Shown piece after piece: positions 9,598-34,559 of a stretch of DNA of 64,000 bases (positions are counted from its first letter, which is position 1; every line of letters begins with the position of its first letter). The stretch comes from Candidatus Moraniibacteriota bacterium. Its GTDB lineage: Bacteria > Patescibacteriota > Minisyncoccia > Moranbacterales > UBA1568. The stretch is taken from NCBI GenBank assembly GCA_028711705.1, contig JAQTRS010000003.1, positions 27,818-91,817 on the forward strand, in the 5' to 3' direction. Below the pieces are notes generated by a model that searched no databases, was not told where the DNA came from, and saw nothing but the letters and a program-made list of their open reading frames with translations. Made by a program: the position numbers and the translations under genes.

Positions 9598-10863
9598 ATG
9601 AAGTCACAAAAAATCCTTCACTATCTCCTCCTTGCCACTATCCTGACGCTCCCTTTTTCCGGAGTCCGCTTTTTCATACTCGGAGTACCGATTTGTATGC
9701 CGGAATTGATGGTTATTTTCGCTTCTGCGATGTTTGTGTATATAAAATGGCATACTGACACCTTCAGAATGCAAAAGCTCCCACGATCGATTGTAGCGTC
9801 AATTACAATGATTGTTATCGGATTGTTTTCATCTTCGATTTTCAATGGCCTATCAACCGTTTCGCTCGGCATCATCAAAAGCTGGTTCTTCTTTCCCATA
9901 CTCTTCGCCTGGCTTCTTTTCCAATCATTCCACCTGCGATCGAGCGGCGCCAAAAACCTTCCTGAAAAAATGTCTCCACTTCCGCAATACACGCTGCTCA
10001 TCTGGTATATAACCCTCTCACTCACATCCATCGCGGCGCTTTCCTTTTTTTTCCAAAACGACTTGACTTATGACGGACGACTGAGGGCCTTTTATCTCTC
10101 TCCGAACTATCTCGCCCTCTTCCTTTTCCCGGGGGTTTTGCTCGGGTGGCATTTCCTCATAAAGTACTGGGTGCAAAGAAAGCCTTGGCTCTTTGCCATC
10201 GCTCTCGCTTCGTGGATGATGCTATGCGCCACGCTCTATCTCACGCTTTCCTATACCGTCATCACCGCATCGCTCCTGGGTTTTTTCATCGCTTTATTCC
10301 TTGCATCCAACCGATCTTATTTCTCACGCATCACTCTTATCGCGCTCTTCGTCAGCTCCATCTCCTTTTTCCTGCTCTTTCAGATGCACGGGCAAAAATT
10401 CTCCGATCTTATCCACTTCAATGAACGCTCCTCTTTGGTATCGCGCATGATGATCTGGCAGTCATCGATAAAAATGATCGCCGATCATCCCATTATCGGT
10501 ATCGGTCCGGGCAATTTCCAGACGACCTACCTCGACTACCAGTCATATTTCCCACCCTACCTTGAATGGGCTGTGCCGCATCCGCATAATCTCTACCTTG
10601 CCTTTTGGCTGCAAACAGGCATCATCGGACTAATCGGATTCATATGCCTCAACATTTTCTGGATACACCATATTAGCAGCTACGTGACTCACGGTACGAA
10701 AAAAGTGCCCTTCGCGTGGACGCTTCTTGGCATACTCATAGCGCTACTCTGTATCGGGCTGCTCGACACGCCATATTGGAAGAACGATCTTGCCTACACC
10801 TTCTGGCTACTGATCGCTCTTGGTCTCTACAAACCTTCTTTGGAAAAGGACATCAAAGCTTGA
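9598..10863 (+). CDS. O-antigen ligase-like (Wzy_C) polytopic membrane protein, second paralog
   Basis: Signature HPHNLYLAFWLQTGIIGL. Start is set at MKSQKILHYLL, downstream of the hairpin. The track ORF starts at 9466. Confidence 0.7.
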   Translation: MKSQKILHYLLLATILTLPFSGVRFFILGVPICMPELMVIFASAMFVYIKWHTDTFRMQKLPRSIVASITMIVIGLFSSSIFNGLSTVSLGIIKSWFFFPILFAWLLFQSFHLRSSGAKNLPEKMSPLPQYTLLIWYITLSLTSIAALSFFFQNDLTYDGRLRAFYLSPNYLALFLFPGVLLGWHFLIKYWVQRKPWLFAIALASWMMLCATLYLTLSYTVITASLLGFFIALFLASNRSYFSRITLIALFVSSISFFLLFQMHGQKFSDLIHFNERSSLVSRMMIWQSSIKMIADHPIIGIGPGNFQTTYLDYQSYFPPYLEWAVPHPHNLYLAFWLQTGIIGLIGFICLNIFWIHHISSYVTHGTKKVPFAWTLLGILIALLCIGLLDTPYWKNDLAYTFWLLIALGLYKPSLEKDIKA

Positions 10864-11989
10864 TGCTATAGAGTTTTCCGTCGGCACGATTCAAGAATAT
10901 GAGCAACGACTCATCATCATTCACCATCATCGATGCGGCATCGTAGCTTTTGGATATCTCTTTGGTTTCCACGATACGGCTCTTTTCGCCCGTTTCCATA
11001 TTCACCTTCCAAAACGTATCCTGTGTCAAAAGCGGCTTGGAAAAATAATCATTCGGCAAAATCGCATCATCCGGAAGCGATCCAGGCAAAGCATAGTACA
11101 CCGAGTCGCTATTTTTCGCCCAGACCGTTTTGGAAACCAGTGTCGGAATCTGGAGATTCTGATACTGGGCACCCTGATTGAGCAAAATGCCGAGCGTCGT
11201 CAGCATTCCGCCTTTCTGATCCGTCGAGCTCATCAAAAGTTTTTGCCCATCCGGGGAAAAAACATACTCCGCCCCGAACTTCCCGGAAAAAAGCGTCTTC
11301 ACATCACCACCAATAAGTGAAACGCTTCGCAAAGATGTTTCCTCGAAAGCATTGCCCTGATTCCAGAAGGCGAGCAACGAACCCTGCGGCATTACCATGG
11401 CATTCATATTCACAAACGGGCTATCCCCGATTTTTTTCCACTCGGAGCCGTTGGGATTCGCGATATTCAAAGAGCGCTCTTTGGTTTTGACATCATAATA
11501 TTTGTACACGATATGGTCCCCCAAATTCGTCCAGATCGGCGTCTCCATATTATCCTTGAGCGGCGTTTCGGTTTTCGCAACGGTATCCACCAAATACCAT
11601 TTGGCGCTATCGGCGATCTTCATTTCAACCAAAGCCTGCGTATGAAGCGGCGACCACACGGCGCGAAGCGGTTCCCCGGAAAGAGTCATGATCCGTGCTA
11701 CGGATTCCGTATCCAAAGAAATTTTCTTTATTTCCCTGCCTTGTACTGTGAAATACACAACCTGATTCCCTTCCAGATCATATGTCGGACTCATTATTTT
11801 TTCCTCGGTCAAAGCCTTGATATGAGCCTCTTCCTTTGGGACTTCAGGCGTCGTATTTTTCACCTCGATAGTTTTCGAATCGTTCACGAATGGGCTATTG
11901 ACATTATTTCGGAACGCGAAATTATACACCGCAAGCAAAAGCAATGCGATACCTAATACGACAGAAGAGATGAAAAACAATTTTTTCAT
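10853..11989 (-). CDS. membrane-anchored periplasmic/extracellular beta-propeller protein (PD40/TolB-like repeats)
   Basis: N-terminal TM is SSVVLGIALLLLAVY. Contains SPDG-type repeats (YVFSPDGQKLL). First gene (3' end) of the minus-strand T4SS-like run. Confidence 0.45.
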   Translation of the reverse strand: MKKLFFISSVVLGIALLLLAVYNFAFRNNVNSPFVNDSKTIEVKNTTPEVPKEEAHIKALTEEKIMSPTYDLEGNQVVYFTVQGREIKKISLDTESVARIMTLSGEPLRAVWSPLHTQALVEMKIADSAKWYLVDTVAKTETPLKDNMETPIWTNLGDHIVYKYYDVKTKERSLNIANPNGSEWKKIGDSPFVNMNAMVMPQGSLLAFWNQGNAFEETSLRSVSLIGGDVKTLFSGKFGAEYVFSPDGQKLLMSSTDQKGGMLTTLGILLNQGAQYQNLQIPTLVSKTVWAKNSDSVYYALPGSLPDDAILPNDYFSKPLLTQDTFWKVNMETGEKSRIVETKEISKSYDAASMMVNDDESLLIFLNRADGKLYSIKL

Positions 11990-12022
11990 AGAAACATCAA
12001 TGAAAAAGAAATGAGCACGCCA

Positions 12023-12925
12023 TTAGAAACGGACATGAATATGGTCGGCCCCGACACAATCCGCCTTGTAATTCCCATTAACATCTTCGCAAAATGTTCC
12101 CGATCCGTTCGGATTATTAGGCAGGGCGCCCTTGAGGATAAACTGATCGCGAAGAGCAACGGAAGGAGGTGTGACATCAAAAGCATTGCCCGAATAATGC
12201 GCTGAGTTTGCAGCATGAGACCCTCCCGCGATACTGGTAATTTGGTAATTCCCATTCACGCTGCTGATGGCGGAAAGCATCGCTGCAGACGGTGTGACTT
12301 TTCCAGTGCAGGCAGCGCTCGTCGCATTGCAACCGCTGAAGCAAGCCGTCATAGACTGACCCTGCTTCGCTTCATTGATATTGGATTGGGGCGAAACGGC
12401 CGCACCGTTCGTATCCTTGCAATCCCCTCCATTGGCGAGTTTGCCATCAGCGATCTGGCTGGCAGCCTGTTGTGCTGAAGCAGACGGTACCGGAGCCGTG
12501 CCTCCGTTAACCGGCGTTGAGGATGTTCCGGTGCCGACACCGCTGAAATTAAGCGTGGTCAGATCCGGATTGATAGTGTTGACGATAAGCCATGCAGCCA
12601 ACCCGAGCGTCAACCCAATCAAGGCATCCTTGATGACGCCCTTCGCCGTGCTGGCCGATGAGGTATTTCCCGCACTCGTAAGGTACATGAATCCGCCGAC
12701 CGTCAGCATGAACATCGCCGAGATACCGATTATCCACAAAGCGAGCTGATAGACGGAACTCACATATTCAGGAAAGGTTTTATTGCCTTCGTATCCGGGA
12801 ATATTTTCCAATTGCTGGTACTGTGGCATCGATGCGGCATCGATAGCAAAAGCGTCTTGTCCTCCAAAAACGACTACCGCGATACCGATCGCAAACGCTA
12901 TCACATAAAGACGAGATGATTTCAT
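12023..12925 (-). CDS. membrane-anchored LAS/M15-type zinc peptidase (peptidoglycan DD/LD-peptidase-like) with a pilin-like N-terminal topology
   Basis: Signal peptide (AFA|ID). Two hydrophobic helices (LALWIIGISAMFMLTVGGFMYL and ALIGLTLGLAAWLIVN) as in TrbC/VirB2. The C-terminus has H-x6-D (SHAANSAHYSGNAFD) and HxH (ADHIHV) motifs. Confidence 0.5.
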   Translation of the reverse strand: MKSSRLYVIAFAIGIAVVVFGGQDAFAIDAASMPQYQQLENIPGYEGNKTFPEYVSSVYQLALWIIGISAMFMLTVGGFMYLTSAGNTSSASTAKGVIKDALIGLTLGLAAWLIVNTINPDLTTLNFSGVGTGTSSTPVNGGTAPVPSASAQQAASQIADGKLANGGDCKDTNGAAVSPQSNINEAKQGQSMTACFSGCNATSAACTGKVTPSAAMLSAISSVNGNYQITSIAGGSHAANSAHYSGNAFDVTPPSVALRDQFILKGALPNNPNGSGTFCEDVNGNYKADCVGADHIHVRF

Positions 12926-12954
12926 AAAAATATTCTTAGATACTCACACATATA

Positions 12955-15585
12955 TTACTGCACTTTTTTCTCCGGAATGAAAGAGAAGGTGATTCCTAGC
13001 GCCAACAAAATAAGGCCCATAGTCACCACCAATCTGAAAAAGAAGATCACTGAAGCAGGCACATACGAGATGATGCTGGCGAAAAACTTCTTTGAACTAT
13101 CCAAAGGCCCCGAGGCGAGCTGCCCGGTGTTTTGAATCATTTCAACCTGAACACTGCGTGACAGCTTCACGTCGACCACATCGGCTATAGAAACGCCCCA
13201 GATATCGAATAGGGCTTTTTTATTCTTCGCAGGCGGCACATATACACCGCTTAAAGAAACGGAGTAGACCATCCCTGGCACAGCCGCCGTATCGGAGACC
13301 TGAATCAAACCGGAAGCATCCGCCATCACCGAGGAGCCGTTCACGGACCAAGCGACATTGGCGCCGCTCTTCAATGAATTAGGATAGAACAATCCTTTCA
13401 AAGCAAACGATCCCCCAGAGAAAGATTCAAACATATCTTTGCTATAATTATCCGTTGTGGCGCCATTCGCATCCACGTACTGTCCAAGGTATTTCGGCCA
13501 CACATTGCCGGTATCTGAGGAGATGATAAGCACGGAAGGATCAACGACACGAAAAACCCTATTCAAAGTCAACGACTTCCCCGACAAAGGATTGGTCGCT
13601 GTCATAGCAATCGTATATGATTCACCGACATCGCCCGTCACGGGAAAATAATTCACCGTGCCGAATTCGGGCTTATTCGGATCGCAGGCATTTGAATTAG
13701 AGACGCTCAAGGAACATTTGAACGGCTTATTGTTGATCAGCCACGAAATATCGGATCCGCTATTCGCCGGGAAACCGAGCACATCAGCATCGAAATCCAG
13801 TCCAATAATCTGTCCTTTTACGACAGGACAGACGGCGCGATCCTCAACAGTATCTTCACACAGCAATCCCGTATCAGACGCCGACGCCGACGCGAATTTC
13901 AACTTCCAGTTCGCATCGACATCGACTGAGTGCGTCTGTATCTGAGCCTGCGACTGCACTATCTTCACCACCACAGAACTTCGCCCCACGCGCTTCTGAT
14001 TCGAATCGTAATTCTCTGTCGCCGTCACATTGATACGGAAATAACCTATAGCGTCCTCAAAGTACCGATCAAAAAAATCCTGACCATTGGCCTTGGTCCC
14101 CTCTTTGACATTTAAATTTATCTTCAACGAAGGCAAATCGCTTCCGGAAACGCTCGAGATGGCATGCGCGTCAATGAGTCCTTTGGTGATATCTTCCCAG
14201 GCCGTATCGTCCGTCTGCGACTTGCTGCTATTGGCATACACCTTCCATTCATAGGATATATTAGAGTCCTTAGTGGCTGAATTGATCAATACCGCATGCG
14301 TGGTCAAAAGATCGCCACGATTGTCAGGATTGTTCTGTGAAAAGGAATCTATGACCGGATTTTCGGGAGTAGCCGTCAACTGGATCTCGAACTTACCGGC
14401 TTGATTGCCGTTCGTTGGATCAACCAAGTTGTCCGCGATACAATCATTCAAATCTTGATCGGCTGTGGGAATCTGTGCGGTTCCCCCGTTATAGGGCGCA
14501 CCAGACATATACCTCCCTGTCGGCCGCGGCGTGCACTGATTCTTCGCGAAAGCCCATGTCACCTGCATGGATGAATCCTGATACTTCGTCGCATTCATCG
14601 ACAAACCCTCAATCACGACACCTACTTGATCCTTGGAAGCATAATTCCATGTGAATTTATCCTGACCCAAACCGACAACGTTGGCCTCATCCTTATTGCC
14701 ATTTTGTGCCGTGCTTGGATCCTTGGGATCCGTGTGCCAAAATTCCTCTTCACTATTTCCGAAAGCACCATCTCCTGTGGTATGACCGGGCGCATCAGGA
14801 AAAAGATGCTCGCAGCCGCTGCCGATCCAATCGCCATTCGTGTTGTAGTGTTCCAATTCGTAGTCCACGCCAGTCTCGAAATCATGGATATAGCAGTATC
14901 CGCTCGTACTCCTGTCACCACCGAATTGAGCCCTGTACTCGTCATTATCACCGCCGGGCTGGCCATAATTCACCTGATCGCCAGCAAAGCCGCCATTCGT
15001 AACCCGGCGCATAGCCTCTATCTTCCAGTCCTCGATGGTAATCTTATTGTTATTATCAAGATCGCATAATTTCTTTTCCAAAGCACTCAGGTTGCTTGTT
15101 TTCAGATCACACTCTTTGCGCTTGAGGTACCATGTGAAATACAGATTCTCCTTCTGGCTTGAGAAATATAGAGGGAAAGCCTGAGCGGTTATCTCCTGGC
15201 CGTTTTTTGGATCGGTAGGATTAAAAAAAAGATTCATCTGCGGCGCCATTTCCTTGTTTGGGGAGATGTTCATACCTTCACCAAGATTCTGTATAGAAAG
15301 CGGATTAAGGTGATAGCGCTTTTCGATGTCGTCTATGATGCTATTGGCCGAACCGGATCCGAATGTTCCTGCGCCGAACGCATCGGCTCCGAATGATCCG
15401 GGATTGAATGATCCGGAACTGCCAGAAAGACTCCCGATATCGAACAAGTCTGCATTGGCAGGTGTCGGACTCACGAAGGCGAAAATGATCTGGAAGAAAA
15501 TGATACTTACAGTTATTGTTTTGTAAAGATATTTTGTTTTTGTGGCCATGGCGTGTTTCATACAAATAGATGTTTTATACGACAC
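12955..15585 (-). CDS. large secreted/surface protein with C-terminal TM anchor (876 aa), function unknown
   Basis: N-terminal signal/TM. Gly/Ser/Phe-rich segment SGSFNPGSFGADAFGAGTFGSG. C-terminal hydrophobic anchor. No recognisable catalytic motif. Confidence 0.6.
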   Translation of the reverse strand: MSYKTSICMKHAMATKTKYLYKTITVSIIFFQIIFAFVSPTPANADLFDIGSLSGSSGSFNPGSFGADAFGAGTFGSGSANSIIDDIEKRYHLNPLSIQNLGEGMNISPNKEMAPQMNLFFNPTDPKNGQEITAQAFPLYFSSQKENLYFTWYLKRKECDLKTSNLSALEKKLCDLDNNNKITIEDWKIEAMRRVTNGGFAGDQVNYGQPGGDNDEYRAQFGGDRSTSGYCYIHDFETGVDYELEHYNTNGDWIGSGCEHLFPDAPGHTTGDGAFGNSEEEFWHTDPKDPSTAQNGNKDEANVVGLGQDKFTWNYASKDQVGVVIEGLSMNATKYQDSSMQVTWAFAKNQCTPRPTGRYMSGAPYNGGTAQIPTADQDLNDCIADNLVDPTNGNQAGKFEIQLTATPENPVIDSFSQNNPDNRGDLLTTHAVLINSATKDSNISYEWKVYANSSKSQTDDTAWEDITKGLIDAHAISSVSGSDLPSLKINLNVKEGTKANGQDFFDRYFEDAIGYFRINVTATENYDSNQKRVGRSSVVVKIVQSQAQIQTHSVDVDANWKLKFASASASDTGLLCEDTVEDRAVCPVVKGQIIGLDFDADVLGFPANSGSDISWLINNKPFKCSLSVSNSNACDPNKPEFGTVNYFPVTGDVGESYTIAMTATNPLSGKSLTLNRVFRVVDPSVLIISSDTGNVWPKYLGQYVDANGATTDNYSKDMFESFSGGSFALKGLFYPNSLKSGANVAWSVNGSSVMADASGLIQVSDTAAVPGMVYSVSLSGVYVPPAKNKKALFDIWGVSIADVVDVKLSRSVQVEMIQNTGQLASGPLDSSKKFFASIISYVPASVIFFFRLVVTMGLILLALGITFSFIPEKKVQ

Positions 15586-15612
15586 TCGTATTTTTTGGTC
15601 AGGTGCGTGTGT

Positions 15613-16257
15613 TTATTTTACAAAAAGAACCGCGCTTGCTATCCCAAGTATAGCAGAGATATATGAAAATAAAAACGAGTATACTATTGAGCGTGATTGC
15701 GCGACGAGAAATCCCGAAAAAACAGCCATGGCAATCGCGATAAGAAATAATATATCCACTTTTCCGTGCGAACCTGCCACTAAAAACAACATGAAGAGCA
15801 GTGTCTGCATCGCTATCGCCTTCATCCCCCCGAATTTTTCCCACACGAAGAATACGAAACCTCGGAAGAAGAATTCGAAAATAAAGATATATACCCCGGT
15901 CACGAATAGGTAGAGGAGGAACATAAGGAAGCTCACGCGTATCGACAATGGCACCGCGAATCGGGCAAGGATATCCGTATAGTGGATCACCGCGGCCAGG
16001 CCTGCGACAATTCCCGAAAGCAGCACGATCATCCACAAGCTGCCTCGCAGCATCTTACCCAAAGAAAAACCGTATTCAGAAAGATCTCCTTTAAGGAGAA
16101 ACTTGACAAAGAATATCGGGAGAATGACCAGAAACACGCTGTCAGAAATGAGTGATTGAATAGCATTCTCGGTCGGGAAAAACGCCGCGGCCAACAAGCT
16201 AGCTACGATAATCGCATTACTCATCCAAAATTGCTTATTGTGTATCGACAGAGTCAT
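15613..16257 (-). CDS. polytopic membrane protein, possibly a CPBP/Abi-family intramembrane protease
   Basis: 214 aa, ~6 TM. Has an ExxxR-like motif (FEFFFRG) and candidate His residues. The motif match is weak. Confidence 0.35.
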   Translation of the reverse strand: MTLSIHNKQFWMSNAIIVASLLAAAFFPTENAIQSLISDSVFLVILPIFFVKFLLKGDLSEYGFSLGKMLRGSLWMIVLLSGIVAGLAAVIHYTDILARFAVPLSIRVSFLMFLLYLFVTGVYIFIFEFFFRGFVFFVWEKFGGMKAIAMQTLLFMLFLVAGSHGKVDILFLIAIAMAVFSGFLVAQSRSIVYSFLFSYISAILGIASAVLFVK

Positions 16258-16268
16258 TTCTTTGTATG

Positions 16269-16691
16269 TTAAGCCTCCAATTCAACGCGACTCTTACTTG
16301 CCTTCTTATCTATAAAATAAATGAATAAGACTGTCATGGTTTCTATGGGGAGCATATTGATTCCGATAAGCACACCTTCTGTCAGTGTTCCGATAAGCAA
16401 TATCAGGCTTTTTTTTGCGAGCGAGTATCGCTGGCCAGACCCACTCAGCATCAGCAAGAAAAAGATGAGGATGGAAAAGCAGAGCGTGATGATCGTCCCA
16501 AGCCCAGGAAGCGATCCTATGAATACCAAGTCAAGCAGATCTTTAAGGATGGCCACACAGAGCGCTGGCATATAGGAAAAGAAGGATACCGGCCGACCCG
16601 AGACTACCTGCCCTTTCGTGAGATGCCCCTGCGATTGCCTCCTGGCCTCGCGCTGGGTCGCCTTAAGCTTTTCATTCCATGTCGCATCCAT
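16269..16691 (-). CDS. small membrane protein (2-3 TM), T4SS-associated by position
   Basis: 140-aa hydrophobic ORF immediately downstream of the VirB4 ATPase gene. Confidence 0.45.
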   Translation of the reverse strand: MDATWNEKLKATQREARRQSQGHLTKGQVVSGRPVSFFSYMPALCVAILKDLLDLVFIGSLPGLGTIITLCFSILIFFLLMLSGSGQRYSLAKKSLILLIGTLTEGVLIGINMLPIETMTVLFIYFIDKKASKSRVELEA

Positions 16692-16694
16692 AGA

Positions 16695-18512
16695 TTAGCT
16701 GTTTTCATTCTCTTGATCAAAATCACGCTTCGCCTGTTCGATTTCCAAGAGCTGCCGCGGATCCGAAGTGATGATCTGATCCTCGCTATAGGACGCGATA
16801 ATTTTGATCGCCACATGCTTGGTGCCTGCAAAAAAGATCCCTTCCCCGACATTGCTTTCCAAAAGCAGGAACTTTTCATGATCGGTAAGATAGAAGGTTT
16901 CCGCGATCAGCTCGATAGACGCCGGGGATTGGCGTAGCAAAAGCTGCAGCGATGAGTTGGTCAGGATGGGTTTCCCATAGCGCGAGTGCATGAAATCACC
17001 AATATCCTGCGTAATCGTCGTCAGTCCCGTATAGTATTTGCGGCAGCGCTTGGCGATGCCATAGAGAAACGAAGCCGCATCCTCATGCTGCATCATCACC
17101 CACGCCTCATCCACGACGACGATGCGTTTCTTGAGCTCTGAGCGCATCTCATTCCAGATGAACTGCAGGATGATGTACATGGCGATAGGACGAAGCTCCT
17201 CCTCCAAATCACGGATATTGAAGACCACCAGCTGTTCCCGCAAGGACACATTCGTATGGCTGCTCAAAAAGCCCGCGAAGATGCCTTCGGTATACTTCTC
17301 AAGACGGGCTGCCAAAGACTCGGCGCCTTCCATATTCTTCAATACCTCATACAGGTCCACCATAGTAGGGAAGGCGTTGGATGGTATGTCTTTGAAGCGT
17401 CCCGTCGGTGTTATATCGCGGATAGCATAGGTTTCCCGTAAGGCGCGATCCAAAATCGAGTCTTCTTCCGGTGTCAGGTTGCCAAGCATCAGGTGGATCA
17501 AACCGATAAGGCCGGCAATAGTGTTTCGGAGCACCGCCGTCAGATCCTCGTCCTCGCCAACGCGCGGCAAATCGAACGGATTGAGGTGAAAACTCGTGCT
17601 CAGGTTGATGTCGATAAACGATCCGCCGACCATCTCGCACAAGTGACGGTACTCGTTTTCCGGATCGATAATGATCACGCCCGTGCCGAGCATCATCGAA
17701 CGCAGCACCTCAAGCTTCACGGTATAACTTTTTCCGGCACCGGATTTTGCGAACACCACCATATTGGCATTTTCCAATTTGAACCTATCGAATAGGATAA
17801 GACTATTATTGTGGCGATTGATACCATACAAGATGCCCTCATTTGAGGAAAGATCAGCGGAAACGAAGGGGAAGGTAGTGGAAAGCGGTGCGGTATTGAG
17901 ATTGTTGGCGATATCCAACACATCGGTCACGAGCGGACGGGTCGAAACGAATCCCTGCTCCATGCGCAGCACGGCCGGCTTGATATAGACCAGCTGCGAT
18001 TCCAGGATCGCCTCCACAGCCTGACTCATCCGATTGAGCTCATCTAGAGTTTGCGCGTACAATGTGATATATAGGCCAAAGCGGAAGAATTTTTCCGTCC
18101 CCTGCTGCAATTTATCCCGCAATTCTTCGATATCAGTAAGCGCTGTTTCAAGTATCGGATCACGCACTTTTCCACCTTCCTCCTCGATATGGATCTGCGA
18201 CTGCACCTGGGTCACGGATTTTCGCAGGTTTTTCAATATTTCCCGGGTATCGATCGGATGGATCATCATGGCAATATCCAAGGGAAAGTCCAGGTTAACG
18301 ATAGGCGAGAACCAATTCGTATTCAAATAGCGGGGATAGGCGACCACGAAATGCGTGCGTGCTATCGTTTCCCCCACCTGCATATAATTGGAACTGAGCT
18401 TGATCGCCGACGGAGCGATAAGGTCACGTATCGTCGCGATGCCTTTTTGATACAGTTCCTCACTTGCCAAAAATTCATCGGTAGTTATTTTATTTTTTGA
18501 AAAAAATGCCAT
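16695..18512 (-). CDS. VirB4/TrbE/CagE-family type IV secretion ATPase (ATPase domain)
   Basis: Walker A is FAKSGAGKSY. Walker B is IVVVDEAW. ~600 aa with the usual conjugative-ATPase layout. Confidence 0.85.
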   Translation of the reverse strand: MAFFSKNKITTDEFLASEELYQKGIATIRDLIAPSAIKLSSNYMQVGETIARTHFVVAYPRYLNTNWFSPIVNLDFPLDIAMMIHPIDTREILKNLRKSVTQVQSQIHIEEEGGKVRDPILETALTDIEELRDKLQQGTEKFFRFGLYITLYAQTLDELNRMSQAVEAILESQLVYIKPAVLRMEQGFVSTRPLVTDVLDIANNLNTAPLSTTFPFVSADLSSNEGILYGINRHNNSLILFDRFKLENANMVVFAKSGAGKSYTVKLEVLRSMMLGTGVIIIDPENEYRHLCEMVGGSFIDINLSTSFHLNPFDLPRVGEDEDLTAVLRNTIAGLIGLIHLMLGNLTPEEDSILDRALRETYAIRDITPTGRFKDIPSNAFPTMVDLYEVLKNMEGAESLAARLEKYTEGIFAGFLSSHTNVSLREQLVVFNIRDLEEELRPIAMYIILQFIWNEMRSELKKRIVVVDEAWVMMQHEDAASFLYGIAKRCRKYYTGLTTITQDIGDFMHSRYGKPILTNSSLQLLLRQSPASIELIAETFYLTDHEKFLLLESNVGEGIFFAGTKHVAIKIIASYSEDQIITSDPRQLLEIEQAKRDFDQENENS

Positions 18513-18548
18513 ACTGTGATTCTCTTGTTATATATTCACACCCCCATA

Positions 18549-19235
18549 CTATACCAGCGAACTCAGCTCGATATCCTTGATATTATTGGTCAATGTCGTG
18601 GAGAATAACGATGGGTTATAGGTATTGTAGAGCAATTCGATAGTCTCTTCCGTGTTCAGTGCCGCAACTTTCACGCCGGTCCCGGAAAGCCCCATGGTCA
18701 CGTGATCCACGCGTTGCCAGAGTTGGTTCTTATAGGTTTCAAAGAGTTCTCGCTGTTCATGTATGGCTTGTTTGGGATTAAGGATATTGCCTATCTTCTC
18801 AAAAAAGCCGCTATGTTCATCCTCGATAGCTGCGAAAGGCACGATAACATAGAAATACTTCGACATGATGTCGGATACTTCCGTAAGATTCTTGATAAAA
18901 TGTTGATACTCGGATATCTGAAGCCGCAAAAGCTCATTCATCTGCTCTTCCTCCTTTTCCTTGAGGAGCTGCAAATAGGGCTCTATATTGAATCTGCGAG
19001 AATGGATAAGCACCTGCACCGGAAAATCCAATGAATTGAGAAAAGCTTGGTACTGAGAAATGATAGCATCCTGCTCTTCGGTCGATTTCAGATCGAAATT
19101 CAGAGAGGATACTAAAAGAATAGCGCGCAAACCCCCGTTTCGCAGGACGACCACACCATCGCGAACCTCCTTCACATCGACGTATTGTTGTGTGCTCGCA
19201 TTCGATGATTTTTTGTTTTTCTGGGAACTCTCCAT
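18549..19235 (-). CDS. hypothetical protein, candidate detached N-terminal domain of VirB4
   Basis: 228 aa with no TM. Lies immediately upstream of the ATPase ORF, which at 605 aa is short for a VirB4. The segment VVLRNGGLRAILLVSSLNFDLKSTEEQDAIISQYQAFLNSL resembles a VirB4 N-terminal region. Confidence 0.4.
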   Translation of the reverse strand: MESSQKNKKSSNASTQQYVDVKEVRDGVVVLRNGGLRAILLVSSLNFDLKSTEEQDAIISQYQAFLNSLDFPVQVLIHSRRFNIEPYLQLLKEKEEEQMNELLRLQISEYQHFIKNLTEVSDIMSKYFYVIVPFAAIEDEHSGFFEKIGNILNPKQAIHEQRELFETYKNQLWQRVDHVTMGLSGTGVKVAALNTEETIELLYNTYNPSLFSTTLTNNIKDIELSSLV

Positions 19236-19250
19236 AAGATAGCTGCTTGA

Positions 19251-19649
19251 TTATTTTTGATTGTCGACTATTTTCGCCAGACGACTCACTTCATCCGCTG
19301 TCACCACTTTCTGCACGCTCACTATATGTGCCTCAGGCGTTTCCTTCACCTTCTTCGCGGATATGACTTTTGTAGGACGGTCCCATACATACACCTTCGG
19401 ACGCACTATGAACAGTATAGCATTGCCGATAAAGACGATGAGGGGCTGATTATACGGCCGATAGAAAGCGAGCGCCACAAAAATGCACACTACCGGCACG
19501 GCCGCTATAAAAAAAGCGAGCGGGTCATAGATATTCCAGAGTATCATGAGTACAGCAACCATGCCGATCATCCAAAGCAGCTGTTTCACGGTCAAAGGAC
19601 CTGCCACCTTATCTTCGACATCGATATATTGTGGGACATTGAATAGCAT
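19251..19649 (-). CDS. PrgI/VirB3-like small membrane protein
   Basis: 132 aa with two TM helices. Its position upstream of VirB4 matches Gram-positive conjugation loci. Confidence 0.45.
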   Translation of the reverse strand: MLFNVPQYIDVEDKVAGPLTVKQLLWMIGMVAVLMILWNIYDPLAFFIAAVPVVCIFVALAFYRPYNQPLIVFIGNAILFIVRPKVYVWDRPTKVISAKKVKETPEAHIVSVQKVVTADEVSRLAKIVDNQK

Positions 19650-19817
19650 AAGTGGAAGCGCTTTTTGAATAAAATGTTCACTACTCCGGAAAAAATGGCG
19701 TTGTGTCGTTCAAAACGCAACTTAGGTGAAGTTGTTTAGTGGCAACAAACAACAATTGCGGCTCTTGCTCGCCGACACGATGAATAGGAAATGCTACCTT
19801 TTCAGTATACCATACCT

Positions 19818-21116
19818 TTATTCATCCGATCGCAAATCCACGACGTTTTGCAATGCGGGAGGAATATCCCATACTTCTTTCTTCTGCGCGGTCGGCGATG
19901 GACCACTACTATAACCCAAACCGAAAGATGATTTCGCAGCCTTCGGTTTGAGCGAGGCGGCGCTTGTGGCTTGTTTTTCCGCCGGGAGCGTCTGCCCTGA
20001 TGAGAACTGGAATGCATCAGGTGAAGATGGATGAAGCGGCTTTAGTGTCAGAGGAGCAGCTTTTGGGGTAAATGAAGGCGTGCTTGAGAAATTTTTATCG
20101 GTAGCTGCTGACATTACGGACGAAGTCTGAGGCATGGCAGGAACAGATGGAGAGGATTTTGAAAAATTGAAGCTTTTGATGAATGGTGTCTGTGTCTTTG
20201 GAGGCATGGGAATTGATGACGCAGAGAAAGGTCTCGCTTCTGGCGCCGTAGCAGACGGAAAATCCTGATACGATTCCTGCATCTTGGCAGGCGCCGCCTT
20301 CGGAAGAGGGGCGGCTATGGGCTGCGCGGGCTTCGGCGCCGAAGTAGAGACAGATTTCGACAATGGCGGCATCGTCGGAGCGGCTGGAAATATGATCTCT
20401 TGCCTCTCTGCATCAATAGAAATCGGCTCATTCTCATCGAGTGATTTGAGTATCAATGAAATCTTCTCGCGGTCCTGCATCGTCAGATTCTTGGTATTTT
20501 CTGCCTGGAAAAGAAATTGCCCACGCTCAACGGAAGAGTGTTTCCGCGCGCCAACGATATCGCGGTAGGCACGCAGCCAGTTCCGCACCGATCCGCGTAC
20601 CAATTCTTTCTCGCTCCTGATTTTCAACCGGCTGCCGGTAACTTGCTGATCATTAAGACGGGAATACTTCGACAAAGCGTCAAGCAGGGCCATCTCCACA
20701 ATAGAGGCCTTTTTTACCGCCGCTTCTTCTGTCACCTTTTTTTCCGCCTTAAGCGTCAGTATTTCCGTTCGGATAAAATTCATAGCTGCCTCAACCTTAT
20801 CCTGCGGGAAATCCACATCATTTTTCAATGCGAGAGAGAATTGCTCGAGTGTTGTTTTCTTGAAATACAGCAATCGTAACAATGAGGCTGTTTTCATTGC
20901 AACATCATCGGTCAACTGCAGTAGCCCTTTCATTTTGAAAATCGCTTCAGCTACTAGTGGTGAACTTAGTGTTACATAAACATCCTCCGGAACATCACGA
21001 AGATTCATCCACATCGCCACACGCTCTGGTTGCGTCAAATACACCCCATTAGGGTGGATATTTACCAATAAAGGATCGAATTTCAACGCATCATTATTTG
21101 TCATAGAATCATTCAT
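19818..21116 (-). CDS. hypothetical protein with Pro/Ser/Ala-rich low-complexity C-terminal half
   Basis: 432-aa ORF with no TM or catalytic motifs. Lies between the VirB6-like and VirB3-like genes. Confidence 0.5.
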   Translation of the reverse strand: MNDSMTNNDALKFDPLLVNIHPNGVYLTQPERVAMWMNLRDVPEDVYVTLSSPLVAEAIFKMKGLLQLTDDVAMKTASLLRLLYFKKTTLEQFSLALKNDVDFPQDKVEAAMNFIRTEILTLKAEKKVTEEAAVKKASIVEMALLDALSKYSRLNDQQVTGSRLKIRSEKELVRGSVRNWLRAYRDIVGARKHSSVERGQFLFQAENTKNLTMQDREKISLILKSLDENEPISIDAERQEIIFPAAPTMPPLSKSVSTSAPKPAQPIAAPLPKAAPAKMQESYQDFPSATAPEARPFSASSIPMPPKTQTPFIKSFNFSKSSPSVPAMPQTSSVMSAATDKNFSSTPSFTPKAAPLTLKPLHPSSPDAFQFSSGQTLPAEKQATSAASLKPKAAKSSFGLGYSSGPSPTAQKKEVWDIPPALQNVVDLRSDE

Positions 21117-21154
21117 GTTTGTTTTTCAAAAAGACACAGGTCTACACGCTATGA

Positions 21155-23245
21155 CTATGCCCTAGACTTAACCCCGCCAACTTCCCATGCAGACACGATA
21201 GCTTCCCTATTTTCTCTCGCCATGGCAGCATAGGCCTCCTTCTGGGATTGTTCTGTCTTGAATGTCATATAGTCGATGAAATCCCTACTAATAAGCATCG
21301 TCTCATCTTGTTTCGCCATATCGTTCGCGCTAATCTTATTGAACACGTCAGCATAGGCTTTCTGCTGTGCAGCAGGTGTTATAGGTCCGGCGGCTTTGAG
21401 ACTATTCAGGTTGGACTGAACGCGAATATGGGCTTGACCCTGCTCCACGAGTCGCTTATCATACATCTTTTTCAAATCCCCGGTAGCGGCAATATCTATC
21501 ATCTCCTTACCGGAAGCATCTTTCATAACATTACCATTGGCATCCTTCTGTTTAATCTGCAATTGAGCAAGCACTTTATCATACCCTTCGCCGTTAGCAC
21601 CCAAAGCTCCCTTCTCAGCCTTGGCCACCATATCACCTAATAATTTCTGATTGCCATTAGCGTTAAGAATCTCAAGTGACTTTTCAAAATCACCTGCACT
21701 TTGAAGCACTGACTTCGGAGCTTTGGCGATAATACCCTTGGCCGCAGAAAGATCCTTACCCACCGCCTGCAAGGCCATCTGGAAATCACCAGCACCCGTG
21801 AGCGCTTCTTTTTCGGAAAGATACAAAGCGGCCGCCTTTTTCTTTTCAGGGGAAAATTTTTTATCACGCAGCATCGCTTGCGCTTGCGTCACATTACCAA
21901 GCTTCTTCAATGACTCCTGCTCAGCAGCCACCCGCTTCGCAAAAGCCGCATCCAATGCGTTCGCATGAGCCACAGTGCCCCCAGCAAGCAATGCAGCCAC
22001 ATTACCCTCACGTCTTTCCTGTGCCCGTCTCGCATCGCTTCCGAACATCATACGCCTATCTTTCCAAGCCTGTTTCACACCACCAGGAACACCGGTCCAG
22101 TTGGCAGCCCCTTTGGCGCCGCGCCATGGCTGGCGACCCGCCCATTTCACGAACATACTGCCATATTTGGTACCGGTATAACCAAGTTCACTGCTCATCT
22201 TTTCGGCGGAAGTGATAGCGATCCAAAAAAGAATGATTGGAACAGCAAAATACACAAGGGTCACCAAGATATCGGTGTTTATAGAGCCCGTATTCGCACC
22301 CATACCCTGAAATGTCGTTGCCATACCCATCTTCCAATTCTGCATCTGGCCAAGCACGCGGATACTCACCAACACCATAAATACCGCTATCGGTCCGTAC
22401 GAGGCATACTGAAACAACTTATCCCACCACTTCTTGGCATAGCCTTGGGTAATTGGGGCGGCCATACCAGCAAATCCGATTGGGGAAAACATCACCAATA
22501 TCGGCAAGGCCACTAAGCGGACAAGCAACATAAGCGAAAGCACGAGCAGGGTGATCATAAAGATGAACATCACGATGATAGCGAGGAAAATGAGCGCCCA
22601 ATCTGACTTAGCCCCTTGAGGCAGAAAAATCTTTTCCAATTGAGCGCCTCCTAAAATACCGCTCGCTGCCGCCGGACCCGTCGTTTGAAACACCGACTGC
22701 ACGAAAAAATACATCATGCTATTGAAGAAGTCGATAATGGTGCGAGAAATAGGCCAGCTGAAATTTACCAGCAAAGCCATGATGATCACCATCCACAAGA
22801 TGCGGTTATATTTATATTTATCCACCTGATAGATGGTGGCGAATGCCGAGAAAAGCAGGACGAGAATGAAGAGCATGTTCATGGTATCGCGGACGATTTT
22901 CCAGATTTCATAAAACACCCCATTATTCATGATACTGGAAAACGAATTCGGATCGAGGATATAGGCAAATAACACGGCGGCAGCATTGGCAAGACCGGCC
23001 TCGACACTCAGCAAGGCCACTGCAGCCGGCTTCAGCATCGAATCGATTCCGATTCCGATATCCGCTCCCACCTTCTCCCACGGACAGCTGCCATCATCCA
23101 AACTCTTCGTCCACCAACCGCAATCAGCGTGCGCTTGAGGCACCGCAAAAACAAACATCGACGAGAAGAGGAATACGGAAAGGAATACGGAAAAAACCTT
23201 CTTATACTGAATAAAAAGGTGAGAAACCTTGAATTGTATTTTCAT
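21155..23245 (-). CDS. VirB6/TrbL-like polytopic membrane protein with long hydrophilic C-terminal domain
   Basis: Signal-like N-terminus (start set at MKIQFK). At least 6 TM helices in the first ~400 aa. The rest is hydrophilic and K/A-rich. Confidence 0.55.
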   Translation of the reverse strand: MKIQFKVSHLFIQYKKVFSVFLSVFLFSSMFVFAVPQAHADCGWWTKSLDDGSCPWEKVGADIGIGIDSMLKPAAVALLSVEAGLANAAAVLFAYILDPNSFSSIMNNGVFYEIWKIVRDTMNMLFILVLLFSAFATIYQVDKYKYNRILWMVIIMALLVNFSWPISRTIIDFFNSMMYFFVQSVFQTTGPAAASGILGGAQLEKIFLPQGAKSDWALIFLAIIVMFIFMITLLVLSLMLLVRLVALPILVMFSPIGFAGMAAPITQGYAKKWWDKLFQYASYGPIAVFMVLVSIRVLGQMQNWKMGMATTFQGMGANTGSINTDILVTLVYFAVPIILFWIAITSAEKMSSELGYTGTKYGSMFVKWAGRQPWRGAKGAANWTGVPGGVKQAWKDRRMMFGSDARRAQERREGNVAALLAGGTVAHANALDAAFAKRVAAEQESLKKLGNVTQAQAMLRDKKFSPEKKKAAALYLSEKEALTGAGDFQMALQAVGKDLSAAKGIIAKAPKSVLQSAGDFEKSLEILNANGNQKLLGDMVAKAEKGALGANGEGYDKVLAQLQIKQKDANGNVMKDASGKEMIDIAATGDLKKMYDKRLVEQGQAHIRVQSNLNSLKAAGPITPAAQQKAYADVFNKISANDMAKQDETMLISRDFIDYMTFKTEQSQKEAYAAMARENREAIVSAWEVGGVKSRA

Positions 23246-23450
23246 TTTTTGCAGCACAGACGCTCTGCTAATGACTAAGATTTCATCACAATCGGAGTAT
23301 ACCACACAATGCAACGGGGTGCAAAAAAGGAATGACCTACTCGATCATCCCTTTTCTTGGGTCTTACGGTAAACTTCGTCGCAAGCTTATTTTTATGCCT
23401 TCTTGAGTATCATATCCTCCCTTGCTAAAATATTTCCTTAAGCCTTCTTT

Positions 23451-24641
23451 TTAATACACGTATCCCTTTATAGAACGGCTCGCTATCGGAATAACACGAC
23501 GATTCACCTTACCCCAACCTTTGTAGTTCATCTCGCTCACCGTAATGGTGCCGCTCCCGACACTTTCCACCAAGGCGACGTGCCCATAATACGGGCTGTC
23601 CGTCGTTACCACGATCGACCCGACCGTAGGGGATTTACCGGTCTTATATCCTTGCGCCTTCGCATTATACAGCCAGGTTCCCGCATTGCCGCCCCATGGC
23701 ACATAGCGTTTCTGCGCCACATACCACGTACAATACCCATACGGGAAGCGATGGCCAGTGCCTGCCTTACCCTCAAGTTTCTTCCATCCTGAAGAAATAT
23801 CGGTTGCGGTTCCCGCTCCGGAAGAGGTTGCATACTGACGACGGAGCGTATCGCTCGTGTCCGTCTGCGTCGGTTTTGGAATCTCCTTTTGTCCGTCCGG
23901 AATAACAATTTCCTGATCGTTTTTTATTTCGCCATTGGCAGGCAATTCATTGAATGCGATGATGCGACCCTTATCCGCATGATACTTCTGCGCGATAGAG
24001 TCCAAAGTCTCACCATTTTGCACCGTGTGCGTCACGCCGGCCACCGGCAGAATAAATATCTGGTCTCCCGGCTTGATGGCGTCAACATTCTCCAAGTCGT
24101 TCGCCCACAAGATAGTATTGACCGTAATAAAGTTTTTGGCAGCGATACCGCTCACGGTATCACCCTCCTTTACCGTATATATGCTCACGCCACCGTCTTC
24201 TTCCGGATCCTTCATGATACCGACCGAAGAAGCCACGATTTGACTTCCCTGTGATCCTGTTGACATATCAGCCACCGACAAGACCATATCTTTTTCTTCA
24301 GGATCCACCTTGGTAGACGCGCTCGCTAATGGCACGAGCGATAAGCTGTCTTTTTTACTTGCCTGACCGGCAATTTTATGTTTCGCAAGAGAAGCCTCAC
24401 CGGATTCATCCTGAAAATACCCTGATAAAAATCCGCCGGATTCATCGGTAGCGGCCACATTCGTTCCGGTTACCAAAAAAGCGCTTCCCACAACAACCGA
24501 AAGCGCTGAATAATTCCTGAACAAATGAAGGAAATAAAGCGTCTTGTGCTGTTTGAGATACTGTGTCAGACGTTTCTGGGCTCGATAGACTCGAGTCTGA
24601 AAGTCCCTAAACCTTAGCCGCTTGTGCTTGAAAGAATTCAA
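23451..24641 (-). CDS. membrane-anchored peptidoglycan hydrolase: two LysM domains plus a C-terminal CHAP domain
   Basis: LysM segments are YTVKEGDTVSGIAAKN and HTVQNGETLDSIAQKY. CHAP Cys is GYCTWYV and His is GHVALV. Confidence 0.8.
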   Translation of the reverse strand: MNSFKHKRLRFRDFQTRVYRAQKRLTQYLKQHKTLYFLHLFRNYSALSVVVGSAFLVTGTNVAATDESGGFLSGYFQDESGEASLAKHKIAGQASKKDSLSLVPLASASTKVDPEEKDMVLSVADMSTGSQGSQIVASSVGIMKDPEEDGGVSIYTVKEGDTVSGIAAKNFITVNTILWANDLENVDAIKPGDQIFILPVAGVTHTVQNGETLDSIAQKYHADKGRIIAFNELPANGEIKNDQEIVIPDGQKEIPKPTQTDTSDTLRRQYATSSGAGTATDISSGWKKLEGKAGTGHRFPYGYCTWYVAQKRYVPWGGNAGTWLYNAKAQGYKTGKSPTVGSIVVTTDSPYYGHVALVESVGSGTITVSEMNYKGWGKVNRRVIPIASRSIKGYVY

Positions 24642-24856: not shown

Positions 24857-25783
24857 ATGCCTACTATCCATACCTGGAAGCGCCGATTCCTTGAATACCT
24901 TGAGATCGAGCTCAACCGGTCGCTCAAAACCATAGAAAACTATGATCAGTGCCTGAATCAGTTTTTCATCTGGTCGAAAATCAAAAAACCACAGGATATC
25001 ACCACCGAGATGATACGGAAATACCGCCTTTTTCTCAATCATCCCTCCACCATCCATAAGGATGCTCTCAAAAAAAACTCCCAGTCGCATCACGTCATCA
25101 TCCTACGTACCTTCCTTAAATTCCTCACCAAACAAGAACTCTCCGTTGTATCGCCTGAAAAAATTGAGGTGGGCAAGTCGCCCATGCGGCAAGTGGACTT
25201 CTTAGAACTCGAGGAAATCGAGCGGCTTTTCGCCGCCGCCTCGGGAAAAAGCTTCAAATCTCTCCGTGACAGAGCCATCCTCGAACTCCTTTTTTCCTCC
25301 GGGCTCCGTGTTTCCGAGCTGGTCAACCTCAACCGCGACCAGATCAACCTTGAAAAACAGGAATTCAGCGTCCGCGGCAAAGGCGGTAAGGTTCGACTCA
25401 TATTCCTCTCCATTCAAGCCAGACAGGCTCTGGAAGCTTATCTACACAAACGAAGCGATGTCGATCAGGCTCTTTTCGTCGCCTATTCGAAGGGCTTTGG
25501 AAAAAAAACAAACGATGCTGAGCTTCGTCTCACGCCCCGTACCATACAACGCATCGTCAAATACTATACGCTTAAAGCCGGCATCGTAAAAGATGTCCAC
25601 CCGCACACGCTGCGACACAGCTTCGCCACCGACCTTCTTGCCAATGGCGCCGATATCCGCAGCGTACAGGCTATGCTCGGGCACGCTTCCATCACCACAA
25701 CCCAGGTCTACACCCACGTCGTCGACAAAGGCCTTCGCGAAATCTACAAGCAATTCCACGGAAAAAGAACTAAAAAGGGCTGA
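24857..25783 (+). CDS. tyrosine site-specific recombinase (XerC/XerD family)
   Basis: Catalytic region HPHTLRHSFATDLLANGADIRSVQAMLGHASITTTQVYTHV carries the R..H..R..Y residues. Confidence 0.85.
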   Translation: MPTIHTWKRRFLEYLEIELNRSLKTIENYDQCLNQFFIWSKIKKPQDITTEMIRKYRLFLNHPSTIHKDALKKNSQSHHVIILRTFLKFLTKQELSVVSPEKIEVGKSPMRQVDFLELEEIERLFAAASGKSFKSLRDRAILELLFSSGLRVSELVNLNRDQINLEKQEFSVRGKGGKVRLIFLSIQARQALEAYLHKRSDVDQALFVAYSKGFGKKTNDAELRLTPRTIQRIVKYYTLKAGIVKDVHPHTLRHSFATDLLANGADIRSVQAMLGHASITTTQVYTHVVDKGLREIYKQFHGKRTKKG

Positions 25784-34523: not shown

Positions 34524-34559
34524 AAATATATACGTATAAATTATTTTTTTCTTTATGGT

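Follow-up and report, generated by a model that had tools for sequence, protein, structure and literature searches.

The type IV secretion systems (T4SSs) of the Patescibacteria are the closest described relatives of the gene cluster treated here, which occupies positions 10853-24641 of a 64-kb stretch (hereafter the window) of the core chromosome of a Candidatus Moranbacteria member (Patescibacteria, or Candidate Phyla Radiation (CPR)). Using transposon sequencing (Tn-seq), Wang et al. (2023, PMC10633639) showed that an apparent T4SS, SEML1_0006-0019, is essential for the epibiotic growth of the Saccharibacterium Southlakia epibionticum. That system is nearest to Gram-positive conjugative systems, has pilins, and shows no recognisable coupling protein or relaxase (PMC10633639). 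Quinonero-Coronel et al. (2025, PMC12102498) surveyed 3,035 Patescibacteria genomes and found VirB4 in 2,417; almost all of these proteins fall into a single clade within the class MPF_FATA. It is accompanied by TrsD, PrgI/VirB3, VirB6 and VirB2-like pilins, and in the Paceibacteria by VirB1-like hydrolases too (PMC12102498). Relaxases are rare in the phylum. Most genomes have VirD4 homologs, typically at a distance from virB4; dnaA, dnaN and ksgA are often found close to the locus, and the VirB4 phylogeny indicates mainly vertical descent within classes (PMC12102498). A nomenclature review of 2025 lists them as a new superfamily branch (PMC12857230). Although the system is essential in the one species tested, its role was called 'completely unknown' in a 2024 perspective (PMC11665869).

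We observed that the cluster consists of eleven co-directional minus-strand open reading frames (ORFs) separated by gaps of 3-168 bp (Table 1). A twelfth ORF (11986-12255, 89 aa) overlaps the gene of the 300-aa protein and is probably spurious. A first-pass annotation of this DNA had taken the eleven consecutive genes for a T4SS without a relaxase, and both the ORF layout and the family searches bear this out: when the ORFs were searched with profile hidden Markov models (HMMs), VirB4, PrgI, LysM and CHAP were directly supported. The block is a genuine type IV secretion gene cluster. The novelty that the annotation had implied was not borne out, since the system has been published (PMC10633639, PMC12102498, PMC12857230). 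The main finding is therefore ordinary for the phylum, i.e. a published phylum-wide feature and not an odd relaxase-less island. We have little doubt that the block is the Patescibacteria T4SS, that its ancestry lies in the monoderm conjugation class MPF_FATA, and that it has ceased to belong to a mobile element.

As in Southlakia and other Patescibacteria, the locus is chromosomal and lies near dnaA, the origin and ksgA. It has an MPF_FATA-related VirB4 with a separate TrsD, PrgI/VirB3 and a likely VirB6, a wall hydrolase within the cluster, and a VirB2-like pilin (PF18895), which is unusual for a monoderm, and no relaxase or coupling protein lies nearby. It differs from the Southlakia locus in belonging to the class Paceibacteria (Moranbacteria) rather than the Saccharimonadia, in having one pilin gene with an LAS-type zinc-domain head where Southlakia has an array of six plain pilins, and in having a LysM-CHAP hydrolase where Southlakia has a peptidase plus lysozyme pair. 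The genes for the 432-aa, 140-aa, CPBP-like, 876-aa Ig-like and propeller proteins are unmentioned in the literature searched on the published Patescibacteria systems, and the annotation had rightly placed its accessory proteins outside canonical T4SS descriptions.

The 605-aa protein matched P-loop_TraG (98 bits, 4.6e-28), AAA_10 and DUF87 in Pfam. With the NCBIfam model conju_CD1110 (VirB4-like conjugal transfer ATPase, CD1110 family) it scored 362 bits (cutoff, 325), aligning to positions 178-734 of 752. The Walker A (KSGAGKSY) and Walker B (VVVDEAW) motifs are readable in the translation, and the VirB4-family ATPase annotated earlier is thus confirmed. The 228-aa protein matched NCBIfam TrsD (E = 1.2e-8), positions 2-120 of conju_CD1110, and positions 95-233 of the VirB4 model of a Mycoplasma integrated conjugative element (ICE). 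As the 228-aa and 605-aa proteins align to these separate parts of the CD1110 model, the two genes together make up a split VirB4. All those of the 120 best VirB4 matches listed (74-96% identity) that carried an organism name were from Moranbacteria or other Patescibacteria, while the nearest plasmid-borne homologs, from Actinobacteria and Firmicutes, were 30-36% identical. Placed by its nearest neighbours only, the window VirB4 would belong to the Patescibacteria clade nested in MPF_FATA.

The 132-aa protein, with hydrophobic segments at aa 19-88, scored 35.4 bits with Pfam PrgI (cutoff, 27). A PrgI/VirB3-like protein directly upstream of VirB4 had been annotated; its identity holds, whereas the adjacency does not, the order being PrgI-TrsD-VirB4 with the TrsD-like gene in between. 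Neither TrsD nor the VirB2-like pilin, both hallmarks of the Patescibacteria system, had been recognised.

The 719-aa protein, which is 100% identical to NCBI protein PHT88_02945 (Candidatus Moranbacteria), has at least six transmembrane (TM) helices (aa ~40-370) followed by a hydrophilic C-terminal region of ~350 aa. This topology agrees with the polytopic VirB6/TrbL-like protein proposed earlier. Its direct match to Pfam TrbL was not significant (E = 5.4), though it spanned positions 26-211 of 215, and none of the 39 locus-derived VirB6-like homologs matched TrbL at E <= 0.01. A database search gave 182 homologs of the protein, and four that are more distant than the locus-derived set, P0294, P0296, P0353 and P0337, which match it at E values of 1e-53 to 1e-73, all pass the TrbL cutoff of 25.9 bits. 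PF19590, presumably a TrbL-like family, is precomputed on many VirB6-like homologs, and the assignment does not draw on it. A direct sequence search of the PDB returned chance-level matches only, and the profile of the VirB6-like family gave nothing useful there. Through its homologs, the protein is likely to be of the 'extended VirB6' type (PMC12857230). The 396-aa protein is membrane-anchored and matched LysM (two copies, 2.2e-21) and CHAP (3.6e-19), in keeping with the peptidoglycan hydrolase that had been annotated; its CHAP domain is nearest to the PcsB model. It is a candidate wall opener of the VirB1/PrgK type.

We mapped the window proteins onto 80 species-level genome loci around VirB4 homologs. 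About 50 of these, including the window, had the order PcrA-Xer-LysM/CHAP-VirB6-g432-PrgI-TrsD-VirB4-g140-CPBP-g876 (type A; g is followed by the length of the encoded protein), and all the named genomes that keep it are Moranbacteria or other Patescibacteria. In type B, two pilin genes-PrgI-TrsD-VirB4-g140 come first, then ComM-RpfB-KsgA-PcrA-Xer, and then LysM/CHAP-VirB6, so that five housekeeping genes (comM, an rpfB-like gene, ksgA, pcrA and xer) part the two groups of T4SS genes. Gene order is thus conserved rather than scattered in related genomes. These two orders indicate that T4SS genes are interleaved with housekeeping genes, that Xer is a fixed neighbour, and that the LysM-CHAP gene stays with the VirB6-like gene, which it adjoins co-directionally wherever both were seen. 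TrsD adjoined VirB4 in 78 of the 80 loci, PrgI was present in 75, the 140-aa gene directly followed VirB4 in 64 (in both types), and the 432-aa gene was kept between VirB6 and PrgI in 53.

VirB4 had the highest median identity (76%; selecting the loci by their similarity to VirB4 tilts this comparison slightly in its favour), above the neighbouring housekeeping proteins ComM (66%), Xer (61%), PcrA (54%) and KsgA (52%). TrsD stood at 64% and PrgI at 48%, while g876 (37%), g432 (33%) and the VirB6-like protein (30%) were far more variable. These values suggest that the motor is under stronger constraint and that the exposed parts diverge fast, and the conservation of VirB4 would fit strong selection. 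In Moranbacteria, then, the core chromosome carries, close to the origin, a machine whose ATPase is more conserved than the housekeeping proteins next to it and which is accompanied by a fixed set of uncharacterised envelope partners.

Since the T4SS genes adjoin a tyrosine recombinase, we considered whether the block might be an ICE, or the decayed remnant of one, gained recently by horizontal transfer with the recombinase as its integrase. The slightly atypical codon usage of the block and its nearest curated VirB4 family, that of Clostridioides conjugative transposons, point the same way. The recombinase is indeed present, its gene starting 215 nt past the hydrolase gene (24857), but it does not serve as the clue to mobility for which it had been taken. 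It scored 242 bits each with XerD and XerC and 234 bits with the XerA model (cutoff, 220). The Xer gene was found in 51 of the 80 loci, adjoining the LysM-CHAP gene wherever both were seen and with PcrA nearby where the flank reached, i.e. it is fixed in this position across ~50 species. We conclude that it is a housekeeping Xer and not an island integrase.

The setting of the block also argues against an ICE. On one side lie dnaA (874-2325), yidC, jag, polysaccharide genes and two Wzy-like genes, and on the other xer, pcrA, ubiA, ksgA (29706-30548), an RpfB-like gene, comM, lspA, pnp, ftsH, tilS, gmk, rpsA and gyrA. The GC content of the block (0.482) and its third-position value, GC3 (0.554), are as in the flanks (0.489 and 0.576), no tRNA gene adjoins it, and the only repeats across it were short imperfect pairs of ~15 nt. 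VirD4, relaxase and VirB11 domains were absent among the listed ORFs of at least 120 aa (Pfam/NCBIfam; a few overlapping or embedded ORFs were unscanned), as the annotation had stated for the 64 kb. The distance to plasmid-borne VirB4 against the closeness within Moranbacteria, and the mainly vertical VirB4 phylogeny (PMC12102498), speak against recent gain as well. The Xer-type recombinase, the conserved synteny, the lack of a relaxase or type IV coupling protein (T4CP) in the window and the lack of borders largely refute the ICE or island reading, which we consider very improbable. The view of the annotation that this was not classical plasmid conjugation is supported, a classical conjugation module being very unlikely here.

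The relation to MPF_FATA conjugative T4SSs (CTn2/CD1110, pCF10 Prg, pGO1/pIP501 Trs/Tra) is nevertheless clear, and the Gram-positive type assigned earlier is upheld. The window VirB4 passes the CD1110-family cutoff, the locus shares with them PrgI, TrsD, a wall hydrolase with a CHAP domain (cf. PrgK/TraG) and probably a VirB6-like protein, and both lack outer-membrane core components. Unlike these systems, the window locus has no relaxase, T4CP, oriT or element borders and is fixed in the core chromosome. Its VirB4 shares only the identity given above with the plasmid homologs, it encodes a pilin of the VirB2 type, absent from Gram-positive systems, and no VirB8-like protein or PrgB-type adhesin is recognisable.

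The sole element of the locus that we did not find in the literature searched is a pilin with a Hedgehog/DD-peptidase-like head (no pilin-zinc-peptidase-like fusion is mentioned in the T4SS literature searched), and we offer it as a lead, not a result. The 300-aa protein, encoded 3.8 kb from VirB4, had been annotated as a second membrane-tethered LAS/M15 peptidase. The LAS zinc site was confirmed; however, the N-terminal half proved to be a VirB2-like T4SS pilin (PF18895, 36.4 bits; cutoff, 26.6), and no curated M15 model matched. The pilin hairpin spans aa ~50-118 (a two-helix hairpin in the AlphaFold2 (AF2) model, this protein being one of two whose structures were predicted), and the Cys-rich LAS-type zinc domain spans aa ~150-300. 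The C-terminal 176 residues alone matched 151 cluster representatives (50% identity), nearly always at the C-terminus of proteins of 240-430 aa. T4SS_pilin was matched as well by 70 of the 81 representatives (50%-identity clusters) that were aligned, which makes the pilin-LAS fusion a recurrent family; hardly any members of these clusters carry an organism name.

When the profile of the LAS head was compared with the PDB, the N-terminal domains of Sonic, Indian and Desert hedgehog were found (E = 4e-5), with GsHssnSaHYsGkAvDI aligned against GHHSEESLHYEGRAVDI. H237, H243, D250 and H295 are invariant and H297 is nearly so, and the zinc ligands H-x6-D ... H and the LAS fold are present in the head (profile match and fold). 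The hedgehog match and the invariant residues indicate that the head is a LAS-superfamily zinc domain of the Hh/DD-peptidase (M15A) kind, a family described in PMC6027127. With the members of this family (MEROPS M15A; Streptomyces albus DD-carboxypeptidase 1lbu; Hedgehog N-terminal domain) it shares the zinc-site motifs GxHxxxSxHYxGxAxD and HxH. It differs from them in being placed behind a T4SS pilin, in being rich in conserved cysteines, in having no clear general-base residue, and in being undetected by the Pfam M15/HH_signal models. No Pfam model matched the window head even at E = 10; among its 81 relatives, Peptidase_M15_3 was matched by one, M15_4 by one and HH_signal by three, and a direct search of the PDB with the 300-aa protein gave chance-level matches only. 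Peptidase activity of the head would be a prediction from its sequence.

The head is not evolutionarily stable. With the head HMM, the ortholog in locus L001, whose VirB4 is 95% identical, gave only a weak match and those in L064 and L073 gave no significant one, so we do not claim the LAS head for all orthologs. The Wolfebacteria pilin matched the LAS-head HMM at E = 1e-25 and carries two heads in tandem. Such sharp variation suggests either that heads are swapped or that a module facing the host diverges very quickly. One could go further and suppose that the T4SS pilins of many Patescibacteria carry exchangeable enzyme-like heads, that the filament is studded with wall-cutting or wall-binding modules which breach or grip host peptidoglycan, and that head swaps set host range. 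The 70/81 recurrence, the differing heads at 95% VirB4 identity and the tandem heads of Wolfebacteria are compatible with this idea, which we consider unlikely as it stands. If the pilin-LAS fusion does work in this manner, an ultrasmall epibiont would have a route through the host wall in pilus subunits that display a peptidoglycan peptidase-like domain; if the idea is wrong, the locus is one more case of a system present in ~80% of Patescibacteria genomes.

The pilins compared for the domain fused behind them lie at 12023-12925 in the window and at L001:15159-16016, L064:7410-8684, L073:16561-17844 and L081:10001-11845 (Wolfebacteria). The Wolfebacteria T4SS locus has the same core order together with the pilin-LAS and propeller pair, and a nucleotidyltransferase/HepT-like toxin-antitoxin pair (L081:9382-10001) lies between its T4SS core and the pilin-LAS gene. 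In type-B loci (L004, L006, L011, L012, L017, L018, L024, L029 and L031 among them), two tandem pilin genes are found upstream of PrgI, ~2-4 kb upstream of VirB4. The five type-B pilins inspected have N-terminal Cys-rich regions, repeated in L017 and L018, and those of L017, L018, L031 and L004 have two pilin hairpins per protein.

As it encodes VirB4, VirB3, a likely VirB6, a pilin and an enzyme that hydrolyses the wall, and has no coupling protein, the locus is best read as a contact machine that builds a pilus or conduit, and we propose this mechanism, from homology, tentatively. In the conjugative pili that are known, the two ends of the pilin point outward, and the LAS domain would therefore sit on the filament or the cell surface. 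VirB4 hexamers, with TrsD as their N-terminal domain, may dock on PrgI/VirB3 and the extended VirB6 to form the membrane motor and translocon. This motor would draw VirB2-like pilin subunits out of the membrane and polymerise them into a short pilus or a conduit through the cell's own wall, which the membrane-anchored LysM-CHAP enzyme would open. The C-terminal LAS head of the pilin, on the filament or the cell surface, may then bind or cut the peptidoglycan peptides of a partner cell, the Ig-like chain of the 876-aa protein and the propeller protein might provide surface reach or adhesion, and the role of the whole would be contact and exchange with a host cell. In the T4SSs that have been studied, VirB4 powers the extraction of pilins and the assembly of the pilus with no part played by VirD4 (PMC12102498). 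T4SS pilins are among the most highly expressed genes of unknown function in cultured Paceibacteria (PMC10936435), which would fit an active surface structure. We consider this explanation as a whole, identity and mechanism together, to be probable.

We also weighed the export of effectors, i.e. that the machine delivers proteins, possibly wall-cutting domains, into or onto the host bacterium by way of a distant VirD4-like protein or a route independent of coupling proteins (cf. Bordetella Ptl and Brucella VirB). Protein delivery is one option favoured by Wang et al. (PMC10633639) and by the 2024 perspective (PMC11665869), the VirD4 homologs placed away from virB4 in most Patescibacteria genomes (PMC12102498) could provide the coupling, and the sharp difference in pilin heads between close relatives is expected of a host-interaction molecule. 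However, neither a T4CP nor any candidate effector bearing a recognisable secretion signal occurs in the 64 kb, and in Southlakia the VirD4 homolog is non-essential while the T4SS is essential (PMC12102498). Moreover, the wall-active proteins of the block all have a Sec-type signal or anchor of their own and need no T4SS for export. We find effector export an unlikely account of the locus.

Import of DNA was considered as well, a VirB4-powered pilus taking up host or environmental DNA for nucleotides or recombination, like archaeal Ced or Helicobacter ComB. The idea was raised in PMC11665869, and Ced (CedA/A1/A2/CedB) resembles the window locus in being a relaxase-less, conjugation-derived machine, without a T4CP, of a cell without an outer membrane, with a VirB4-like ATPase and a VirB2-like pilus. 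In addition, comM lies 7 kb off in the window and directly after g140 in type-B Moranbacteria loci, and T4SS loci of the class ABY1 carry comF, recG and radA (PMC12102498). The match of the window ATPase to CedB was weak, though (50.6 bits; cutoff, 700), neither a CedA homolog nor a CedA-like channel was recognised, and the block encodes no DNA-binding or nuclease component. Deletion of comEC in Southlakia abolishes competence and leaves viability unaffected, whereas the T4SS is essential (PMC12857230). DNA import appears quite unlikely to us, and we retain the contact machine as the preferred reading, with DNA import and effector export as its chief rivals. The suggestion of the annotation, DNA uptake or release or attachment between cells, is a conjecture that the published work makes as well.

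How far the machine extends along the block is a separate question, and it bears on the accessory proteins. The 378-aa protein has one N-terminal TM-like segment and matched the NCBIfam TolB propeller at E = 1.8e-9, far under the family cutoff, and Pfam PD40 at E = 0.064; these weak matches agree with the PD40 beta-propeller of the annotation. The 876-aa protein (868 aa in the NCBI call) is 100% identical to NCBI protein PHT88_02910 (Candidatus Moranbacteria), and all its homologs with an organism name are Moranbacteria or Minisyncoccota. It has an N-terminal signal/TM helix, a Gly/Ser-rich linker, a beta-sandwich chain with generic Ig-like folds only, and an end consisting of a conserved SYIPASV motif (invariant proline), a TM anchor and a short tail; the two hydrophobic helices accord with the signal peptide and C-terminal anchor annotated earlier. 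A direct PDB search with it gave chance-level matches only. A membrane-anchored protein resembling a stalk or an adhesin is the description that suits it best.

The 214-aa protein matched the CPBP archaeomyxosortase MrtA weakly in NCBIfam (E = 1.5e-4). Pfam Rce1-like (PF02517) was matched by 24 of its 43 homologs (best E = 2.8e-7) and not by the window protein itself, so that its annotation as CPBP-like stands for the family. The family conserves E128-x3-R132-G and no histidine, in place of the CPBP motifs EExxxR, FxxxH and HxxxN/D, and is likely, from these residues, to be a non-catalytic or altered branch of CPBP. As the catalytic histidines are not conserved, an active protease is not supported. 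Its gene (15613-16257) adjoins that of the 876-aa protein (12955-15585), and one may speculate that the two act as a pair in C-terminal sorting or processing, much as in myxosortase or rhombosortase systems. The 140-aa protein matched no Pfam or NCBIfam family, and the 432-aa protein has no TM segment and no Pfam, NCBIfam or PDB-profile match.

It could be argued that only the core (PrgI-TrsD-VirB4-g140 and VirB6) is T4SS, and that the LysM-CHAP, CPBP-like, 876-aa and propeller proteins are ordinary envelope or division proteins encoded alongside. The CHAP domain is nearest to that of a division hydrolase, type B separates LysM-CHAP/VirB6 from VirB4, and the folds of g876 are generic. The pilin and propeller genes, furthermore, follow g876 only in a subclade (L001, L064 and L073, where the propeller gene follows the pilin gene; L080 has the propeller only). 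Against this, the LysM-CHAP gene is next to the VirB6-like gene and co-directional with it in both arrangements, and CPBP and g876 follow VirB4-g140 in about 47-54 of the 80 loci. The pair of pilin-LAS and propeller genes recurs beside the T4SS core in Wolfebacteria, where the propeller homolog follows the pilin-LAS gene (E = 4e-8), and the gaps throughout the block are short. We regard it as decidedly unlikely that the machine is limited to its core.

Several observations weigh against our interpretation of the block as a vertically inherited contact machine. Its codon usage deviates, with a correlation of relative synonymous codon usage (RSCU) of 0.80 against 0.89 +/- 0.05 for random housekeeping subsets (4.4% tail), and this deviation is marginal; of the composition and border checks, neither GC content nor flanking repeats gave a signal. 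The VirB6 assignment was made through homologs only. No VirB8-like protein (NTF2 fold, N-terminal TM helix), a component of the minimal Gram-positive set (VirB1, B3, B4, B6, B8 and D4), was recognised: the block has no Pfam/NCBIfam match to VirB8, PrgL or TraM, and TM-segment analysis showed no VirB8 topology in the 140-aa and 432-aa proteins. The LAS head has no obvious equivalent of the general base of hedgehog/M15A enzymes, and it may therefore bind rather than cut. Finally, in the majority of related type-A loci no gene for a pilin lies closer than 10 kb to VirB4, which means that the pilin is not always part of the cluster.

Table 1. Genes of the T4SS block and two context features, with positions in the window
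Feature	Position	Strand	Basis
378-aa protein, N-terminal membrane anchor or signal helix, then TolB/PD40-like beta-propeller	10853..11989	-	weak family match
300-aa fusion: signal peptide, VirB2-like T4SS pilin hairpin, Ser/Thr/Pro linker, LAS-type zinc domain	12023..12925	-	PF18895 match, profile and fold
876-aa surface protein	12955..15585	-	N-terminal signal/TM helix, C-terminal TM anchor
214-aa polytopic membrane protein, CPBP/Rce1-like, apparently without catalytic histidines	15613..16257	-	family-level matches
140-aa protein, ~3 TM helices, directly downstream of VirB4	16269..16691	-	TM-like segments; no family match
605-aa VirB4-family ATPase, C-terminal two thirds of full-length VirB4	16695..18512	-	Pfam and NCBIfam
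228-aa TrsD-like protein (VirB4 N-terminal domain as its own gene)	18549..19235	-	NCBIfam TrsD
132-aa PrgI/VirB3-like membrane protein	19251..19649	-	Pfam PrgI
432-aa soluble protein, conserved ~240-aa N-terminal part and Pro/Ser/Ala-rich tail	19818..21116	-	no family match
719-aa (NCBI, 696 aa) extended VirB6/TrbL-like protein (likely)	21155..23314	-	homologs match Pfam TrbL
396-aa membrane-anchored peptidoglycan hydrolase, LysM x2 and CHAP	23451..24641	-	Pfam LysM, CHAP
Xer-type tyrosine recombinase (context, outside the machine)	24857..25783	+	XerD/XerC/XerA models
Probable oriC (context)	33836..34852		DnaA-box cluster, low GC, GC-skew switch

The region at 33836-34852 is the probable oriC, ~31 kb from dnaA. 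Ten DnaA-box matches (<= 1 mismatch) fall in this ~1 kb (40 in the whole window, against 14.8 expected), and a GC content of 0.38-0.41 and the minimum of the cumulative GC skew are found at 33-36 kb. The T4SS block is ~9-23 kb away and, as judged from the sign of the skew, appears to be transcribed in the direction of replication. Two perfect DnaA boxes (2393 and 2425; region 2393-2433) lie just upstream of dnaA. A second cluster, of seven DnaA-box-like sites (41311-42096), is inside a low-GC Wzy_C-type gene (40937-42445) and may be an effect of composition or a real binding cluster.

Among the neighbouring genes, the UbiA-family ORF (+) has an N-terminal extension of ~290 aa with no family match, and at its 5' end it overlaps that of the PcrA/UvrD ORF (-) by 14 bp (28053-28066), so that the start of one of them may be wrongly called. 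The 64 kb of this very small genome contain three paralogs of the Wzy_C (O-antigen ligase-like) kind (8199-9452, 9466-10863 and 40937-42445). The first two, in tandem, converge on the end of the T4SS block and overlap the propeller gene by 11 bp.

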